Positions 3-63,970 are shown, counted from the first letter of the stretch. The stretch: DNA of 64,000 nucleotides from Escherichia coli (GCF_024502345.1 NZ_JALDNN010000001.1); one strand, 5' to 3'. Translations and numbers: made by a program. Notes: generated by a model from the sequence alone, not told the origin.

Positions 3-1118
3 ACGTTTTTTGTCAAATTTATTGAACAACTGAAAGGTATTTCGGTTGAGGATGATGTTGAATTCAATTTTTTTGAATTGGGTGGTTCCGGATATCTCGA
101 AAATCCAACTACGGATTTGATGGCTTTGTTTATGGGAGCCCAGAAAATGGTGCCGCCATGGTTGCTCAAAGCATTGCTATGTTGCCTAGATGATTCCCTC
201 GATGTTGATGAAATTGATTTCACTTCTCTGGAGCTAATGAGAGAGGCCCGAACAGAAGATGGGAAATATATTGATATTCTTATCAGACATGATGAATTCA
301 TTATAGGTATTGAGCATAAAGTTCTGGCTGATACATATAATCCTTTTCCCAGCTATGTAAGTCTCATTGATAGTTACGGCGGCAACAATCAAAAACTATT
401 TCGCTGTATATTAAAGCCTGACGGTAACAGCGCTAAAGGCGTAGACGGTTGGCAACTGATCAATTATTCACTGCTGCTGGAAACCGCCATTCGACGTCTG
501 GGGTTAGAGATGATGAATCAAGAGTTCAGCAAGTGGACTTTTTTTTATCAGGAGTTTTTAAGTCATCTTAAAAAATTGAGTGAGGTTAGTATGGATAAGG
601 TATCTGATAAAAATGTGGAGTTTGTCACTGAAAATTTCACAGCTTTGATAAAATCGGTTCAATTGCTGGAAATGTACCAAAATGCTATCACCGAGGAAGC
701 TAAATCGGTTGTCTCAGAGGTATTGCCTGATATTCATATTGCAACAGGTATTAATAACTGGAAGGGTTACTATAAAGCAATTCATCTGATGCCGGGATGC
801 TGGGGGCAAGGTAAAACAGGAATTACGTTAGTTTATCGCCCTTCAGAGGATGGTCGAGATGAAGCTGAGTTCTATGTATATGGATGGATACATTCAGATG
901 ATTACCCTGAAGTTAATGCACTAAAAGAAGAAATAAGAGTTGCTTTAAGTGCTGGAGATTTCATTCCAACAGCTAGCCCTGAGGACTATGAAGTATCAAT
1001 TACTGGGAAGGGGAAAGTGCTTGAACTGAGTTTTTGGGGGAATACGAGAAGCAAAAAAGATGCACTGGTTCTTCTTAAGGATATGACTAAGTGGATGGAC
1101 TCAAAAATAAGAACATAA
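3..1118 (+). CDS. Hypothetical protein, 5'-truncated at window edge; PD-(D/E)XK-type nuclease motif (YIDILIRHDEFIIGIEHK)
   Basis: Frame is open from nt 3 with no in-frame stop before the track ORF at 78 (TTG), so the true start is upstream; stop TAA at 1116-1118; AT-rich codon usage. Confidence 0.7.
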   Translation, partial: TFFVKFIEQLKGISVEDDVEFNFFELGGSGYLENPTTDLMALFMGAQKMVPPWLLKALLCCLDDSLDVDEIDFTSLELMREARTEDGKYIDILIRHDEFIIGIEHKVLADTYNPFPSYVSLIDSYGGNNQKLFRCILKPDGNSAKGVDGWQLINYSLLLETAIRRLGLEMMNQEFSKWTFFYQEFLSHLKKLSEVSMDKVSDKNVEFVTENFTALIKSVQLLEMYQNAITEEAKSVVSEVLPDIHIATGINNWKGYYKAIHLMPGCWGQGKTGITLVYRPSEDGRDEAEFYVYGWIHSDDYPEVNALKEEIRVALSAGDFIPTASPEDYEVSITGKGKVLELSFWGNTRSKKDALVLLKDMTKWMDSKIRT

Positions 1119-1222
1119 AGTAATATGACTGAGTGATGACGATCTTTTTTAAATTGTGGATTATTAGGCTGGTAATTGAAGCGCCGAATAGACAGATATT
1201 AGAATAAAAGGAGAATATTCAA

Positions 1223-2404
1223 ATGATTTATCAGTGTGATACTTGCAGTAGAACGACTTTTGAGGTTAATTGTCCCTGGTGTAGTGGAGTTTCGCCTGTA
1301 AAAACGTCTGCATGGGGTTCAGCATCATCGACCTCACAAGCAATAGATATACAACGTATGACACCATTGAATCCATCGTTTTATCCAGAGTTTCAGTATC
1401 GTTCAAAGGGTGTTCTAAAAGATCTATTTGGGAAAAAGAAAGAGCAAACTCAGCTTAATCAATTGCTTGAAAATGTTCTCGAAAAATACTCCAGTTTAAA
1501 AGATCCATATTTTACTAACTTCATTTACACTTCCAGATTCTCACATAATAATAAATCGGAAGCAGATTACTCAACAGATAATGGTACATACTCCGAATTA
1601 CAACTTTTCCGTGAGGTGTTGGTCAGAAAAGGGTTCAATGAGCTTGAAGAGTTACCTGAGCTATTAGATAAATTACTCCTTACCACGTCATTTAACGCTC
1701 TTTATTATGGTTTCGCTAAGGAAGTTAAACGGCATATTAAATCTACACTTACTGAATCCTTGAAGTCATGGATTGAGGAAGCGGGTACCACTTTTAGGGC
1801 AGATCTTTCATTGTTTCTATTCTATATATGGAGCAATAAAATAGAGTTCTCATCAGTAGAGTTCAATGAAAAAGCGGAGGCTACGCCTGGTGTTCCTTTA
1901 GTTTCATTTGATGAAGTTAAAAAATACTTAGCTGTGTGCGAACATATTTATTTTGATATTCTGGTTGATAGATTAGCTACACGGCTCGAACATTTTAACC
2001 CTAACAAATTCGTCACCATGTATTTAGTTGATGCAATGGACGGTTTCCAGTTTGAAGATTTCCTTGTGGAAGTATTCCAGACTATGGGCTATGACGTCAA
2101 AGAAACCAAGAGAACGCAAGATCAGGGGGCAGATCTCTTCGTCACTCGATTTGGTAAGGATATGGTTATTCAGGCGAAAAATTATTCTGGTTCTGTAGGT
2201 AACTCGGCGGTGCAGCAGGTGATCTCTGCTAAAACATTCTATGGTTGTGATGAGGCGATGGTTGTGACTAATTCCTACTTCACTCGCTCTGCGAAAGAGT
2301 TAGCTGAATCAGCCTTGGTACGTCTGATCGACAGGGATGAACTGCAAAAGTATCTGGATGATTACAATCAGAAGATAATTGAAGATTTCCAGTCAAACTC
2401 GTAA
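1223..2404 (+). CDS. Zinc-ribbon protein with C-terminal Mrr-like (type IV restriction endonuclease-like) catalytic domain
   Basis: 393-aa ORF; SD aaggag upstream of ATG; N-terminal CDTC...CPWC; C-terminal GADLFVTRFGKDMVIQAKNYSG...LIDRDEL resembles the Mrr_cat core (D ... QxK). Confidence 0.75.
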   Translation: MIYQCDTCSRTTFEVNCPWCSGVSPVKTSAWGSASSTSQAIDIQRMTPLNPSFYPEFQYRSKGVLKDLFGKKKEQTQLNQLLENVLEKYSSLKDPYFTNFIYTSRFSHNNKSEADYSTDNGTYSELQLFREVLVRKGFNELEELPELLDKLLLTTSFNALYYGFAKEVKRHIKSTLTESLKSWIEEAGTTFRADLSLFLFYIWSNKIEFSSVEFNEKAEATPGVPLVSFDEVKKYLAVCEHIYFDILVDRLATRLEHFNPNKFVTMYLVDAMDGFQFEDFLVEVFQTMGYDVKETKRTQDQGADLFVTRFGKDMVIQAKNYSGSVGNSAVQQVISAKTFYGCDEAMVVTNSYFTRSAKELAESALVRLIDRDELQKYLDDYNQKIIEDFQSNS

Positions 2405-6500: not shown

Positions 6501-6587
6501 ATGAAACTGCGCAAAATCCTGAAAAGTATGTTCAATAACTATTGCAAGACGTTCAAAGACGTACCGCCAGGCAATATGTTCCGATAA
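6501..6587 (+). CDS. azuC: Small protein AzuC (28 aa), within the AzuCR dual-function RNA locus
   Basis: atgaaactgcgcaaaatcctg... encodes MKLRKILKSMFNNYCKTFKDVPPGNMFR; below the 60-aa track cutoff; terminator follows immediately. Confidence 0.85.
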   Translation: MKLRKILKSMFNNYCKTFKDVPPGNMFR

Positions 6588-6589
6588 CA

Positions 6590-6616
6590 AAAAACCTGCT
6601 CCGGCAGGTTTTTTTG
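6590..6616 (+). terminator. Rho-independent terminator of azuC
   Basis: cctgctccggcagg hairpin followed by a T7 run. Confidence 0.85.
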
Positions 6617-6701
6617 TGTCCTGATGACGGTGGATGTGACTATCGCTGAAGATGTGAAGCCGCTACTATAACGGCTTTCAAAATGCTATCAGGAGTTTAC
6701 G

Positions 6702-10919: not shown

Positions 10920-14272
<3,353 letters not shown>

Positions 14273-20848: not shown

Positions 20849-20876
20849 TTCTCCCGATTTCCTCAATTGAAATGAA

Positions 20877-20904
20877 CCCGATGATCTGCGCATCGGGTTT
20901 TTTA
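20877..20904 (+). terminator. Rho-independent terminator after cheW
   Basis: cccgatg-atctgcg-catcggg hairpin followed by a T-run. Confidence 0.8.
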
Positions 20905-20934
20905 TTTCAATTTCGCGGCGGGTGGCATCAGCAA

Positions 20935-20961
20935 TAAAGTTTCCCCCCTCCTTGCCGATAA
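20935..20961 (+). promoter_or_regulatory. Sigma-28 (FliA) class 3 promoter of the tar-tap-cheRBYZ operon
   Basis: TAAAGTTT-N11-GCCGATAA, an exact match to the FliA consensus. Confidence 0.9.
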
Positions 20962-27296: not shown

Positions 27297-27365
27297 ATTG
27301 CCTGATGTGGCGTGACCACGTCATATCAGGCGGTCTGATAAGGTGATGACGCCGCATCCGACAAA
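27297..27365. repeat. REP (repetitive extragenic palindromic) elements
   Basis: gcctgatgtggcgtgaccacgtcatatcaggc and gatgacgccgcatccgaca palindromic units. Confidence 0.7.
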
Positions 27366-34409: not shown

Positions 34410-35165
<756 letters not shown>

Positions 35166-35551
35166 TTTTTACCGTTGCATCATGTCGCCCAATATGATGC
35201 TTGCTCGTACCAGGCCCCTGCAATTTCAACAGGGGCCTTTTTTTATCCCTGAGCAGTATAAAAAACGAACGATTACCGTGATCTGTTGAGCGGGTGACAG
35301 TGAACATAGCGTTGTGCTAAAAATATTTTATATATTCACATTAATTATGGGATTTAAATTACTAAAACTAATAAATATATATTCTAAATAGCAACTGGTT
35401 ATTCCTTAGCAATTAATGATTACATTGTAATAAATCATATTCTTTATCGATTATTTCAGGCAGTGTTGTGCCGAATTATGCAAGCGGTTAATTCGTTGTA
35501 TATTTAATTATACAATGATTTCGGTGTTCTGGAATTTAATTAGAGGAATCT

Positions 35552-36676: not shown

Positions 36677-39106
36677 ATGACATTAACAAGACGTGAATTT
36701 ATTAAACACAGCGGTATTGCCGCTGGAGCGCTGGTGGTGACATCGGCAGCACCGCTACCCGCATGGGCAGAAGAGAAGGGCGGTAAAATCCTCACCGCGG
36801 GACGTTGGGGAGCGATGAACGTAGAAGTGAAGGACGGCAAGATTGTTTCTTCGACAGGTGCGCTGGCGAAAACCATACCGAACTCCTTACAGTCTACGGC
36901 GGCGGATCAGGTACACACCACGGCGCGTATTCAGCATCCGATGGTGAGAAAAAGCTATCTCGATAATCCACTGCAACCGACGAAAGGTCGTGGCGAAGAT
37001 ACCTATGTACAGGTGAGCTGGGAACAAGCATTAAAACTGATTCATGAGCAACACGATCGCATTCGCAAAGCTAACGGACCATCGGCTATTTTTGCCGGAT
37101 CTTACGGCTGGCGCTCTTCTGGCGTGTTGCATAAAGCGCAAACGTTACTGCAACGTTATATGAACCTGGCAGGCGGTTATTCCGGGCATAGCGGCGATTA
37201 TTCAACCGGGGCAGCACAGGTGATCATGCCGCATGTGGTCGGTTCTGTAGAGGTGTATGAACAGCAGACCTCCTGGCCGCTGATTCTGGAAAACAGCCAG
37301 GTTGTGGTGCTGTGGGGGATGAACCCGCTGAATACCTTAAAAATTGCCTGGAGCAGTACCGATGAGCAAGGGCTGGAATACTTCCATCAGCTGAAAAAAT
37401 CTGGCAAACCAGTGATTGCCATTGATCCTATCCGCTCCGAAACCATCGAGTTCTTTGGCGATAATGCCACCTGGATCGCGCCGAATATGGGCACCGACGT
37501 GGCACTGATGTTAGGGATTGCGCATACCCTGATGACACAAGGCAAACACGATAAAGTGTTCCTTGAAAAATACACTACCGGGTATCCGCAGTTTGAAGAG
37601 TATCTGACAGGTAAGAGCGATAATACGCCGAAGAGCGCGGCCTGGGCGGCGGAAATTACTGGCGTACCGGAAGCGCAGATAGTCAAATTCGCTGAACTGA
37701 TGGCGGCGAATCGCACAATGCTGATGGCAGGCTGGGGAATTCAGCGCCAGCAATATGGTGAACAGAAACACTGGATGCTGGTGACGCTGGCGGCGATGTT
37801 AGGGCAGATTGGTACACCGGGCGGCGGTTTTGGTTTCTCTTATCATTACTCCAACGGTGGCAACCCGACGCGTGTTGGCGCCGTGCTGCCGGAAATGTCT
37901 GCGGCGATTGCCGGACAGGCCAGCGAGGCCGCTGATGATGGCGGAATGACGGCGATTCCTGTTGCCCGTATCGTCGATGCGCTGGAAAATCCTGGCGGCA
38001 AATATCAGCATAACGGTAAAGAACAAACGTATCCGAATATCAAAATGATCTGGTGGGCGGGTGGCGGTAACTTTACCCATCACCAGGATACTAATCGTCT
38101 GATCAAAGCATGGCAGAAACCGGAGATGATCGTCGTTTCTGAATGCTACTGGACTGCAGCTGCTAAACATGCAGATATCGTATTACCGATCACCACATCG
38201 TTTGAGCGCAATGACTTGACGATGACCGGTGATTACAGCAACCAGCATATTGTGCCGATGAAGCAGGCTGTCGCTCCGCAATTTGAAGCGCGTAACGATT
38301 TTGACGTGTTTGCCGATCTTGCTGAATTACTGAAACCTGGCGGAAAAGAGATCTATACCGAAGGTAAAGATGAAATGGCGTGGCTGAAATTTTTCTATGA
38401 TGCCGCTCAGAAAGGTGCCCGTGCGCAACGCGTCACTATGCCAATGTTTAATGCCTTCTGGCAGCAAAATAAACTGATCGAAATGCGCCGCAGCGAGAAG
38501 AACGAACAGTATGTTCGTTATGGTGATTTCCGCGCCGATCCGGTGAAAAATGCGCTGGGTACGCCAAGCGGCAAAATTGAGATTTACTCCAAAACGCTGG
38601 AAAAATTTGGCTATAAGGATTGCCCGGCACACCCGACTTGGCTTGCGCCTGATGAGTGGAAGGGTACCGCCGACGAGAAGCAGTTACAGCTTCTGACCGC
38701 ACATCCGGCACACCGTTTACACAGTCAGCTTAACTATGCGGAACTCCGTAATAAATATGCGGTTGCCGATCGTGAACCGATCACTATTCACACCGAAGAT
38801 GCTGCACGCTTTGGTATTGCGAATGGCGATCTGGTGCGTGTCTGGAACAAACGTGGTCAGATTTTGACAGGCGCGGTGGTGACTGACGGGATCAAAAAAG
38901 GCGTGGTATGCGTGCATGAAGGTGCATGGCCAGATCTGGAAAATGGCTTGTGTAAAAACGGCAGTGCGAACGTGTTAACGGCGGATATCCCCAGCTCGCA
39001 GCTGGCAAATGCCTGTGCCGGTAACTCTGCGCTGGTGTATATCGAAAAATATACGGGTAACGCACCGAAGTTAACGGCGTTTGATCAGCCAGCTGTTCAG
39101 GCATAA
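36677..39106 (+). CDS. torZ: Molybdoenzyme TMAO/N-oxide reductase TorZ (BisZ)
   Basis: Start [13 protein letters not shown] (Tat motif) gives 809 aa. Confidence 0.95.
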
Positions 39107-39157
39107 GACGTGAAAAGCGCCCGGAAACGGGCGCTGAGGTTATGCAAACATAAAGCT

Positions 39158-39262
39158 GCCTGATGCGCTATGCTTATCAGGCCTACATAGTCCCTGCAAT
39201 ATATTGAATTAGCAAGGTTTTGTAGGCCGGATAAGGCGTTCACGCCGCATCCGGCAGTAATA
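39158..39262. repeat. REP/BIME cluster
   Basis: gcctgatgcgctatgcttatcaggcctac and tgtaggccggataaggcgttcacgccgcatccggca units. Confidence 0.8.
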
Positions 39263-39270
39263 CCAGACCT

Positions 39271-41418
<2,148 letters not shown>

Positions 41419-44934: not shown

Positions 44935-45051
44935 TATGACTCAAATACACGAAATCATTCGCGTTGCATCGAGGCGGCAACTGAGTGAACTCCCATGAGC
45001 ATAGATAACTATGTGAATGGGATGAGCGAAGGCAGTCAACGAAGAGGCAGC

Positions 45052-45504
45052 GTGAAGGATAAAGTGTATAAGCGTCCCGTTTCGATCTTAGTGGTCATCT
45101 ACGCACAAGATACGAAACGGGTGCTGATGTTGCAGCGGCGTGATGACCCCGATTTCTGGCAGTCGGTAACCGGCAGCGTGGAAGAGGGTGAAACCGCGCC
45201 GCAAGCTGCCATGCGCGAAGTAAAGGAAGAGGTCACCATTGATGTTGTCGCCGAACAACTGACCTTAATTGACTGTCAGCGCACGGTAGAGTTTGAAATT
45301 TTTTCACATTTACGTCATCGCTATGCGCCGGGCGTGACGCGTAATACGGAATCATGGTTCTGTCTTGCGCTTCCGCACGAGCGGCAGATCGTTTTCACTG
45401 AACATCTGGCTTACAAGTGGCTTGATGCGCCTGCTGCGGCGGCGCTCACTAAGTCCTGGAGCAACCGGCAGGCGATTGAACAGTTTGTAATTAACGCTGC
45501 CTGA
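45052..45504 (+). CDS. nudB: Dihydroneopterin triphosphate diphosphatase NudB
   Basis: GTG start ([11 protein letters not shown]) gives 150 aa; Nudix box [21 protein letters not shown]. Confidence 0.9.
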
Positions 45505-48323: not shown

Positions 48324-49337
<1,014 letters not shown>

Positions 49338-49338
49338 G

Positions 49339-49468
49339 TCGGATTGGTCGCTCGCACCGCATCCGACATTGGCAGTGTGCCTGATGCGACGCTATTCGCG
49401 TCTTATCAGGCATATACCAGAGATAGCGAACCGTAGGTCGGAAAAGGCGCTCGCGCCGCATCCGACAT
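49339..49468. repeat. REP/BIME cluster (three palindromic units)
   Basis: gtcggattggtcgctcgcaccgcatccgac; gcctgatgcgacgctattcgcgtcttatcaggc; gtaggtcggaaaaggcgctcgcgccgcatccgac. Confidence 0.8.
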
Positions 49469-49480
49469 TTTAGGTTTAAA

Positions 49481-54458: not shown

Positions 54459-54545
54459 AAAAGCCTCTCGCGAGGAGAGGCCTTCGCCTGATGATAAGTT
54501 CAAGTTTGCTTCAGAATATTCGAAATCTGTTGAACTATCATTGAA

Positions 54546-54585
54546 CTGTAGGCCGGATGTGGCGTTTTCGCCGCATCCGGCAACG
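54546..54585. repeat. REP element
   Basis: ctgtaggccggatgtggcgttttcgccgcatccggcaacg. Confidence 0.75.
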
Positions 54586-63646: not shown

Positions 63647-63970
63647 TGGCTTCTGATAATTCGATTGACCGTTGGCGGATGCGGCGCGAGTGCCTTGTCC
63701 GCCCACAACACACCACAATCGTAGGCCTGAGAAGACGCAACAGCGTAGCATCGGGCAATCAGCATCATACTGTGCCACTCAAAACGTCAAACTACTTTCA
63801 CCTAAAATACCCTTATCACCTGATATACAGTAAACACCTTACCTGGCGCGAATTTCTTTGAATAACGGCCAACCGCCCCGCTTATTTGCGCATCTTTTGT
63901 CTCGATATACATTTTCTGACATCCTCATCCACTATGCTACAGGCACTAAAATGGTTATTGAGGAGCAAAT

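Follow-up and report, generated by a model that had tools for sequence, protein, structure and literature searches.

The torZ-cmoB intergenic region

The stretch of DNA analyzed here (the window, 64 kb in length) is part of the Escherichia coli chromosome; judged by the annotations of G47-1 and MG1655, it extends between the yecA region and yebE and is oriented in reverse to K-12, where it corresponds to approximately 1.93-1.99 Mb. Over positions 38000-40500 the sequence and that of strain G47-1 are 100% identical. Positions 39107-39270 make up the whole gap of 164 bp between two convergent genes, torZ on the plus strand (stop codon 39104-39106, gene end 39106) and cmoB on the minus strand (gene end 39271). 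The gap in MG1655 is also 164 bp long, and the torZ and cmoB flanks were found in 5,425 of 5,426 complete E. coli genomes. Reading from torZ towards cmoB, the gap contains a terminator-type hairpin, an outer flank motif, a REP of the z1 type, a linker (L), a REP of the y type, and a stretch of 14 nt (39257-39270) up to the cmoB stop codon. REP and BIME elements have been on record for some 40 years. A preliminary description of the window had listed palindromic REP units in this gap and after cheZ, ruvB, lpxM and yebF under the joint name of REP/BIME clusters, and our analysis supports that interpretation as real and correctly read.

REP units in the window

The L linker core, of the TGCNAATTCAATANATTGCAG type, was searched in one genome per GTDB species, which yielded copies of the y-L-z1 arrangement. 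A covariance model (R1) was built from 58 distinct REPs of other Escherichia and Pseudocitrobacter genomes; the two loci orthologous to torZ-cmoB were left out of its training set. With its filters off, R1 picked out precisely ten REP units across the 64 kb, at E-values from 2e-12 to 0.036 and all within five gaps, and the only further matches were reverse-strand echoes of the same palindromes or had E above approximately 1.6. Since the model finds these ten units and none elsewhere, the list of five sites given in the preliminary description, every one of which was borne out, is complete for the window. The consensus half-sites are found 6- to 23-fold more often than in shuffles: GCCGCATCCGRCA, with at most one mismatch, has 7 matches where 0.30 are expected, and GTAGGYCKGAWAAGRCG, with at most three mismatches, has 7 matches where 1.19 are expected, all seven inside the five gaps. 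The Rfam model naRNA4, which is derived from REP325, gave nine matches at E<=10 in the 64 kb, and these also fall inside the five gaps without exception; they stay under the gathering score because the model covers two REPs at the REP325 spacing. A scan with REP consensus models had been proposed beforehand as the check on the REP reading, with a failure to match as the outcome that would speak against it; the units matched both R1 and naRNA4, and no such failure occurred.

The ten units can be aligned with each other and with independent REPs, with which they share the GTAG tetranucleotide, a GCCKGAT/ATCMGGC stem and a bubble in that stem. All ten fold, with energies from -10.7 to -28.8 kcal/mol, in a manner compatible with the 11-bp structure of R1. 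GTAG is present in five of them (both torZ-cmoB units, the third ruvB unit, the lpxM unit and the second yebF unit) and is degenerate in the other five, reading GTAA in the first ruvB unit, TATA in the second, and GTGG in the first yebF unit, with none in the cheZ pair. The AA/GC bubble is found in the canonical units and is missing from the lpxM unit. The ten units are extragenic except for 5 nt at the ruvB stop codon. Strict REP regular expressions also matched inside genes (at 12366, 38647 and 42075); these matches were rejected as chance half-sites with no partner arm and no model score.

The palindromes lie at gene 3' ends, have stable folds and, at 39116-39135, are accompanied by a genuine terminator-type hairpin, all of which might be taken as signs of ordinary intrinsic terminators, or of GC-rich hairpins arisen by chance, that belong to no repeat family. 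This explanation has a close to negligible probability in view of the alignment of the ten units with each other and with independent REPs, the R1 E-values down to 2e-12 with nothing elsewhere in the 64 kb, the enrichment of the half-sites over shuffles, and the fact that no unit is followed by a T-run. The palindromes are therefore treated here as members of the REP family.

REP-bearing gaps account for 5 of the 58 gaps in the window: three of the 12 convergent and two of the 34 tandem gaps carry REPs, and none of the 12 divergent gaps does, a placement that agrees with the known bias of REPs towards 3' ends. The wording of the preliminary description, by which the clusters fill their gaps, is apt for ruvB-znuB (REP/BIME share of approximately 94%) and torZ-cmoB (approximately 75%) and generous for the other three (approximately 27-33%).

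Architecture of the torZ-cmoB element

The hairpin nearest to torZ, AGCGCCCG-GAAA-CGGGCGCT at 39116-39135, lies 10 nt past the torZ stop codon and is a perfect, GC-rich inverted repeat of 8 bp (100% complementary). This hairpin forms the stem of the torZ/cmoB terminator, lies outside the BIME, and is kept in alleles with and without the BIME. It is followed by the outer flank motif of the z1 side, GAGGTTATGCAAACATAAAGC (39136-39156), a diverged version of the flank GAGACTGATGACAAACGCAAAAC (the reverse complement of GTTTTGCGTTTGTCATCAGTCTC) that is common to dozens of independent BIME-1 copies; this motif is missing from the empty allele described below.

The z1-type REP occupies 39157-39187 on the minus strand (TGCCTGATGCGCTATGCTTATCAGGCCTACA). 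GTAG comes first on the minus strand, so that the unit is an "iREP" when read on the plus strand. It scores 54.5 bits with R1 (E 2.7e-10), has a fold of -12.8 kcal/mol, and agrees with the published z1 consensus at 28 of 30 positions (PMC11208160). The y-type REP, on the plus strand at 39221-39256 (TGTAGGCCGGATAAGGCGTTCACGCCGCATCCGGCA; GTAG at 39222-39225), is the stronger match of the two, with 64 bits and E 2e-12 in R1 and 39.7 bits over its hairpin in naRNA4; it folds at -20.9 kcal/mol with the AA/GC bubble included, and 34 of its 35 positions agree with the published y consensus (PMC11208160). Inverted-repeat analysis confirms that the z1 and y REPs are mutually inverted copies.

The two REPs are separated by the L linker, 33 nt long (39188-39220, TAGTCCCTGCAATATATTGAATTAGCAAGGTTT), whose core, flanked by a y REP and a z1 REP, was found in 80-odd copies in other Escherichia and Pseudocitrobacter genomes. 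The linker carries a predicted IHF-like site, ATTCAATATATTG, at 39197-39209 on the minus strand, which agrees at 8 of 9 specified positions with the IHF consensus WATCAANNNNTTR, itself of low information content. The flank motif of the y side is not recognizable, GTAATACCAGACC standing in its place beside cmoB, and therefore the copy appears to fall short of a full-length BIME-1. One copy of the BIME is present at the locus here, in MG1655, and in all full-length matches (each spanning 564 bp). Its core is 100% identical to that of K-12, both differences in the gap (n=2) lying outside the core; the copy of the MG1655 record used for comparison lists no REP annotation. Per E. coli genome, the element cross-matches a median of at least 35-38 other places, counted with a ceiling of 40 matching pieces per record; this, together with the nearly universal flanks, upholds the earlier characterization of these repeats as typical of the E. 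coli core genome.

A BIME-1 is defined by inverted z1 and y REPs around a long conserved L linker, often with an IHF site, and by its occurrence as a single copy (PMC3333891). We conclude, at a probability of roughly 90%, that the torZ-cmoB gap holds one BIME-1 (RIP/RIB, the IHF-binding class of REP clusters), with inverted z1 and y REPs around the 33-nt L linker and with one recognizable flank. The inverted z1/y arrangement, the conserved linker of 33 nt with its IHF-like site, the single copy at the locus, the position at the 3' end of transcription units and the high copy number in the genome are all those of the BIME-1 class; the element differs in that only one of the two conserved outer flanks is recognizable. 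It is unlike BIME-2, having z1 in place of z2, an L linker, and a single copy. The preliminary name of REP/BIME is thus refined to BIME-1 at this locus and to a BIME-2-like cluster at ruvB-znuB, and otherwise stands. The BIME abuts the 3' foot of the terminator hairpin common to both convergent genes.

The only Rfam match in the gap that reaches its gathering score is to ES036; it covers 39179-39221 (minus strand) with 45.5 bits, the gathering score being 37.6. ES036 corresponds to CssrF, an approximately 290-nt transcript detected by northern blot from the dacB/yhbZ gap of Shigella flexneri (PMC3071730), and both the score and the blotted transcript could argue for a free-standing sRNA gene at 39179-39221 with the REPs merely incidental to it. 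Alignment shows, however, that the 43-nt ES036 model consists of the L linker plus GTAGGCCT of the neighboring REP. The motif recurs many times per genome, each time flanked by a y REP and a z1 REP, which marks it as a repeat family and not as a locus-specific gene. In addition, no sigma-70-like promoter was found in or near the torZ-cmoB gap, the segment sits within the 3' UTRs of two convergent genes, and it is absent from approximately 22% of E. coli genomes. A separate sRNA gene is thus very unlikely, and the Rfam call of an "ES036 sRNA" at torZ-cmoB is best read as a repeat motif, in other words as the L linker of the BIME-1 scoring above the gathering threshold. The same applies to naRNA4, whose first hairpin is fitted by the y REP at 39221-39256: both Rfam families model pieces of repeats. 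The role proposed for naRNA4 in chromosome compaction is disputed (bioRxiv 10.64898/2026.03.23.713779).

An open reading frame of 48 codons with a GTG start can be drawn mechanically on the minus strand at 39097-39243, and the gap might on this ground be proposed to encode a small protein. The frame runs antisense over the torZ stop codon and on through repeat sequence that owes its conservation to the REP and L motifs; it is annotated neither in G47-1 nor in MG1655, and the segment is absent from approximately 22% of strains; a coding function is hardly credible.

As compared with the REPIN/RAYT system, the BIME-1 at torZ-cmoB likewise pairs two inverted REPs that can fold into a single long hairpin, and its units have the GTAG and the stem mismatch, both of which are needed for binding by TnpA_REP (PMC3333891). 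Units elsewhere in the window differ from that system, the bubble being absent from the lpxM REP and GTAG from both cheZ units and one of the yebF units. No RAYT (tnpA_REP) gene was found within the 64-kb window.

Strain polymorphism at torZ-cmoB

The locus exists in three main states among the 5,426 complete E. coli genomes. The filled allele, counted with a 564-bp query across the gap that had to be covered to at least 80% in one place, is present in 3,775 genomes (approximately 70%). About 1,207 genomes (22%) have an empty allele; this number was obtained by subtracting the 3,775 filled genomes from the 4,982 that are contiguous with a 434-bp empty-allele query, whose matches join over the 130-bp gap. 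An allele occupied by IS621, counted with a 300-bp junction query covered to at least 80%, is found in 325 genomes (6%), and the remainder of approximately 119 genomes shows other states, for example a truncated torZ.

In empty alleles, such as those of CH4796 and AR_0058, the hairpin is joined to cmoB by AATCTTTAC or AAATTTTTAC; the ST131 type of this allele reads CGGGCGCTAAATTTTTAC. These alleles are without some 130 bp, roughly 39136-39265. Also missing from them are approximately 12 nt (GTAATACCAGAC) from outside the BIME core, and they have an AAT/AAATT that is not found in the filled allele. Owing to these further differences, the comparison yields neither a clean excision footprint nor a clean insertion footprint.

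Outside E. coli, a divergent Escherichia lineage (L029) carries an oppositely oriented BIME-1 at this site, and Escherichia sp. E1V33 has the site occupied in the same orientation. None of the 5,426 E. coli genomes reached 80% coverage with the inverted form at torZ-cmoB, the best single match covering bases 1-204 of 256. The gap, which is naturally polymorphic (BIME present, absent, or interrupted by IS621), could be used as a natural experiment on BIME-1, termination, and the mRNA stability of convergent genes.

Targeting by insertion sequences

The natural target of IS621 is the 11-bp sequence ATCAGGCCTAC (or ATCGGGCCTAC) with a CT core, and 144 of 173 experimental IS621 insertion sites lay within REPs (PMC11208160). 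The sole exact copy of ATCAGGCCTAC in the window lies at 39176-39186 on the plus strand, in the tail of the z1 REP, with its CT core at 39183-39184. Moreover, the 50-mer at 39160-39209 is present verbatim in the published list of natural targets as entry TBL_ATCGGGCCTAC_seq327 (PMC11208160). The site is in actual use: strain MS 119-7 carries an IS621 in the torZ-cmoB gap inserted directly after the CT of ATCAGGC-CT-AC (39183-39184), with junctions TTATCAGGCCT|TGTATTATCC and ACAGTATCT|ACATAGTCCC, and it is this type of junction, in the z1 REP and at the CT core, that is shared by the 325 occupied genomes. The locus thus matches the targets of IS621, a bridge-RNA-guided recombinase of the IS110 family, in its 11-mer, in its occupancy at the CT core, and in its membership in the published list. 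As a step of the proposed mechanism, the z1 tail ATCAGGC-CT-AC would be the sequence read by the IS621 bridge RNA and would thus make the element a natural docking site for IS621.

The second insertion sequence concerned is IS1397, a BIME-specific member of the IS3 family, which occupies the loop of the z2 REP in the ruvB-znuB cluster in 555 of 5,426 genomes (10%). Bachellier, Clement, Wilde and colleagues reportedly described REP loops as the targets of IS1397. Both the IS621 and the IS1397 sites are unoccupied in the window analyzed here. Occupancies of 6% and 10% at two defined REP sites are the numbers behind the notion of REPs as landing pads for IS elements; targeting of REPs by such elements is documented in an earlier publication (PMC1525189).

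The torZ-cmoB element is of a kind already known, and nothing in it departs from the literature on REP/BIME elements, IS targets, gyrase or 3' UTRs. For genome biology at large it carries little weight, given that the same 164-bp gap is present in K-12 and that the z1 tail is already part of the published IS621 target list.

Terminator context and possible roles of the element

In the empty allele the hairpin is surrounded by an A-run and a T-run, and a terminator was called on both strands. In the filled allele, as found in the window, a terminator scan of the gap called none on either strand. Here the BIME starts right at the 3' foot of the stem, in the place held by the plus-strand T-tract in the empty allele, and this T-tract is thereby displaced; on the minus strand, the hairpin at 39116-39135 is followed by TTTTCACG only. 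As RNA, the gap folds far better than shuffled sequences on either strand (z-scores of -5.41 and -5.08), with the z1 REP pairing with the y REP and the L linker in apical position.

REPs have been reported to block 3'-to-5' decay and to act as leaky, partly Rho-dependent terminators, and convergent gene pairs with a REP show higher expression (bioRxiv 10.64898/2026.03.23.713779). The same study describes REP effects as context-dependent and does not tie terminal REPs in general to longer half-lives (bioRxiv 10.64898/2026.03.23.713779). Taken together, the terminator scans, the predicted fold and these published roles suggest that torZ transcripts run into the REPs in approximately 70% of strains. 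In strains with the BIME, torZ transcripts would then be left without a canonical terminator end, and cmoB transcripts would carry the whole BIME ahead of the hairpin.

The properties of the family suggest the further steps. The BIME would be transcribed into the 3' ends of the torZ and cmoB mRNAs, where the individual REP stems, or the long composite hairpin of z1 and y, could block 3'-to-5' exonucleases and bring about leaky, partly Rho-dependent termination. At the DNA level, the L linker may offer a binding site for IHF, and the y REPs of the BIME-2 cluster may offer sites for gyrase, as y REPs of BIME-2 elements are preferred gyrase cleavage sites (PMC6379681). The BIME itself is probably not self-moving; it would be spread or lost rarely, probably through the action of TnpA_REP/RAYT in trans or through recombination.

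The relation between the BIME and the hairpin also allows for a different view, in which the torZ-cmoB element is no passive repeat and instead an active, site-specific mobile unit (MITE- or REPIN-like) aimed at the 3' foot of the terminator hairpin. Three allelic states exist within E. coli, L029 and E1V33 also have the site occupied, in opposite and in the same orientation respectively, the element abuts the hairpin exactly at the place of the T-tract of the empty allele, and truncation against a hairpin is also seen in several independent BIME-1 copies; TnpA_REP, for its part, recognizes and cleaves REP/BIME DNA in vitro (PMC3333891). However, the torZ-cmoB locus shows neither a target-site duplication nor a clean footprint, and the inverted form is essentially absent from the 5,426 E. 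coli genomes. According to the literature, REPs are stable on plasmids and an insertion mechanism in vivo is not established; any element able to persist only at gene 3' ends, moreover, would be expected close to a terminator. We therefore consider an active mobile unit unlikely. The broader proposition, that the feet of intrinsic terminators are sites of repeated, site-specific integration by BIME-1 elements, which thereby rewire termination, appears equally doubtful. If it were true, the torZ-cmoB gap would record at least two independent hairpin-directed integrations, and a Rho-independent bidirectional terminator would have been turned into a REP-dependent one in approximately 70% of E. 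coli.

Other REP-containing gaps

The cluster between ruvB and znuB consists of three units in alternating orientation, in the order y-like (49333-49368, plus strand, R1 E 0.0014), z2 (49378-49416, minus strand, E 0.00019) and y (49432-49467, plus strand, E 2.5e-06). The GTAA of the first unit overlaps the ruvB stop codon (49335-49337), and naRNA4 matches the cluster with 51.2 bits over 49337-49412. The cluster is BIME-2-like, which the torZ-cmoB element is not: it has the alternation of y and z2, the short linkers and the variable copy number of BIME-2, although its units are somewhat degenerate, with GTCGGAT for GCCGGAT and a z2 tail of GGCATAT for GGCCTAC. The cluster is hypervariable. As compared with MG1655, 23 of 143 positions differ in the gap against 15 of 400 in the flanks, and the comparison of copy number across strains that had been suggested in advance gave three REPs here and in K-12 and five in O157:H7, by tandem duplication of z2 and y. 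In some strains the last y REP of the cluster contains a remnant, 73 bp long, of the left end of IS621.

These observations bear on the earlier suggestion that the REP clusters are potential hotspots for recombination or IS insertion. The suggestion holds for torZ-cmoB, with its IS621 insertions and the absence of the BIME from approximately 22% of genomes, and for ruvB-znuB, with its IS1397 insertions and its change in REP number. It does not hold for the cheZ and yebF pairs, which are degenerate and essentially fixed and are therefore not hotspots, nor do the insertions seen in the lpxM-pykA gap fall within a REP.

The lpxM-pykA gap contains a single canonical y REP ahead of the pykA end (54547-54582, plus strand; R1 49.4 bits, E 3.7e-09), whose stem is made continuous by a change of AA to GT and folds at -28.8 kcal/mol. 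The REP region is identical to that of MG1655. In approximately 9% of genomes an IS1 or an island is inserted in this gap, adjoining lpxM and outside the REP. The AT-rich segment at 54490-54546 was considered as an L-type linker with a z1 remnant and rejected, a small-region scan at E<=10 having given no ES036 match.

The cheZ-flhB and yebF-yebE gaps each contain a degenerate pair of REPs arranged tail to tail. The cheZ pair (27299-27331, minus strand, R1 E 0.0019; 27332-27363, plus strand, E 0.001) has no linker at all and begins 8 nt past the stop codon; among 5,426 genomes, 5,274 show a conserved locus that varies only slightly in length. The relation between REPs near a stop codon and translation was reportedly addressed by Liang, Rudd and Deutscher in 2015. 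In the yebF pair, a 12-nt linker separates the first unit (63673-63707, minus strand, R1 E 0.003) from the second (63720-63757, plus strand, E 0.036); the span of about 63660-63720 given for this site in the preliminary description takes in the first unit and leaves the second outside. This locus is conserved in 5,424 of 5,426 genomes. At the megablast level, neither pair cross-matches other REPs, and both pairs are old members of the REP family.

Orientation and distribution of BIME-1

We compared the BIME-1 in the torZ-cmoB gap of the window (39107-39270) with the corresponding element in related genomes. Strain SCPM-O-B-8794 is the representative of a separate GTDB species, although it is labelled 'E. 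coli', and in its torZ-cmoB gap (locus L029, 6545-6800, minus strand) the BIME-1 is inverted relative to that of the window. Reading toward cmoB, the order is full flank, y REP, L linker and z1 REP, and the inverted element is bounded by the window's hairpin and the window's AGTAATACC..CTTTAC sequence. In Escherichia sp. E1V33 (L051) the element is oriented as in the window.

The exact core of the L linker, TGCNAATTCAATANATTGCAG, was searched in contigs of GTDB species representatives, where it is confined to species of Escherichia and Pseudocitrobacter apart from two kinds of exception in other taxa. A few chance matches without REPs were found in unrelated taxa (L020, L048 and L049). The other exception, contig L076 of a Collinsella MAG, carries a full BIME-1 and appears to be contamination. 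Among these representatives, the exact core was absent from all records of Salmonella, Klebsiella and Citrobacter. BIME-1 has been described as present in single copies (PMC3333891), whereas in Escherichia sp. MOD1-EC7003 the L motif occurs in tandem arrays, one with five copies at a 162-bp period (L071:13967-14635) and two with spacings of 115/230 bp (L070:7908-8503 and L075:388-983).

An IS621 remnant in the ruvB-znuB cluster

The ruvB-znuB region of the window (49338-49480) is a rare variant: over 543 bp, 17 of the 5,426 complete E. coli genomes match it with at least 99% identity, and 4,937 do so at 90-95% identity only. The junction proximal to znuB reads TTTTAGGTTTAAATTAAC in the window; in K-12 and O157 it is AATGTGTTCAGCGATAGATTAGC. 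In strains PE144 and SK1144 the same gap (L010:183-436 and L011:2440-2680, respectively) contains a 73-bp insert within the last y REP, which corresponds to the reverse complement of the initial ~62 nt of the left end of IS621 and is flanked by repeats of a target sequence resembling TATCCGACCT. The insert stops where IS621 itself has TATCGGGCCT, the segment encoding the target-binding loop. Judging from these sequences, the solo IS621 end looks like what remained after the DNA separating the target from the guide-encoding segment was deleted.

REPs and insertions next to stop codons

The first REP after ruvB begins inside the gene (overlap at 49333-49337), its GTAA tetranucleotide including the TAA stop codon of ruvB, and the REP after cheZ starts no more than 8 nt from the cheZ stop codon. 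Liang, Rudd and Deutscher reportedly found in 2015 that a REP can stall terminating ribosomes when no more than about 15 nt separate it from the stop codon.

In the lpxM-pykA gap, the y REP before the end of pykA (54547-54582) carries an AA to GT change that makes the stem continuous, so that the usual bubble is lost. Binding and cleavage by TnpA_REP depend in vitro on the stem mismatch (PMC3333891), and because this mismatch is absent here, the sequence suggests that the REP may be inert to the transposase. On the lpxM side of the gap (54459-54470), directly after the lpxM stop codon and terminator hairpin, ~9% of E. coli genomes carry an insertion. Strain EC7072022BGR has an IS1 there, and the insertion in strain 98E11 is an island that includes genes for alpha-mannosidase and beta-L-arabinofuranosidase.

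Other features of the window

Two Rfam matches score above the gathering score: MicL sRNA, at 373.7 bits, lies within and after cutC (34937-35244, plus strand), and C0465, at 111.6 bits, lies between cheW and tar (20868-20945, minus strand). Two further matches fall below threshold: V_AS5 in the aspS-nudB gap (44943-45066, plus strand) reaches 44.5 bits with E 2e-6, and STnc370 (6583-6647, minus strand), where azuC (6502-6588) starts, reaches 33.4 bits.

No tRNA genes were found in the 64-kb window; on the K-12 map yecA is followed by the tRNA genes leuZ-cysT-glyW. Three genes adjoin yecA in the window (325-2305): one is hypothetical, one is a DUF2787 gene (397-831) and the third encodes an IS3-family transposase (1170-2305). 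The segment appears to be a strain-specific insertion.
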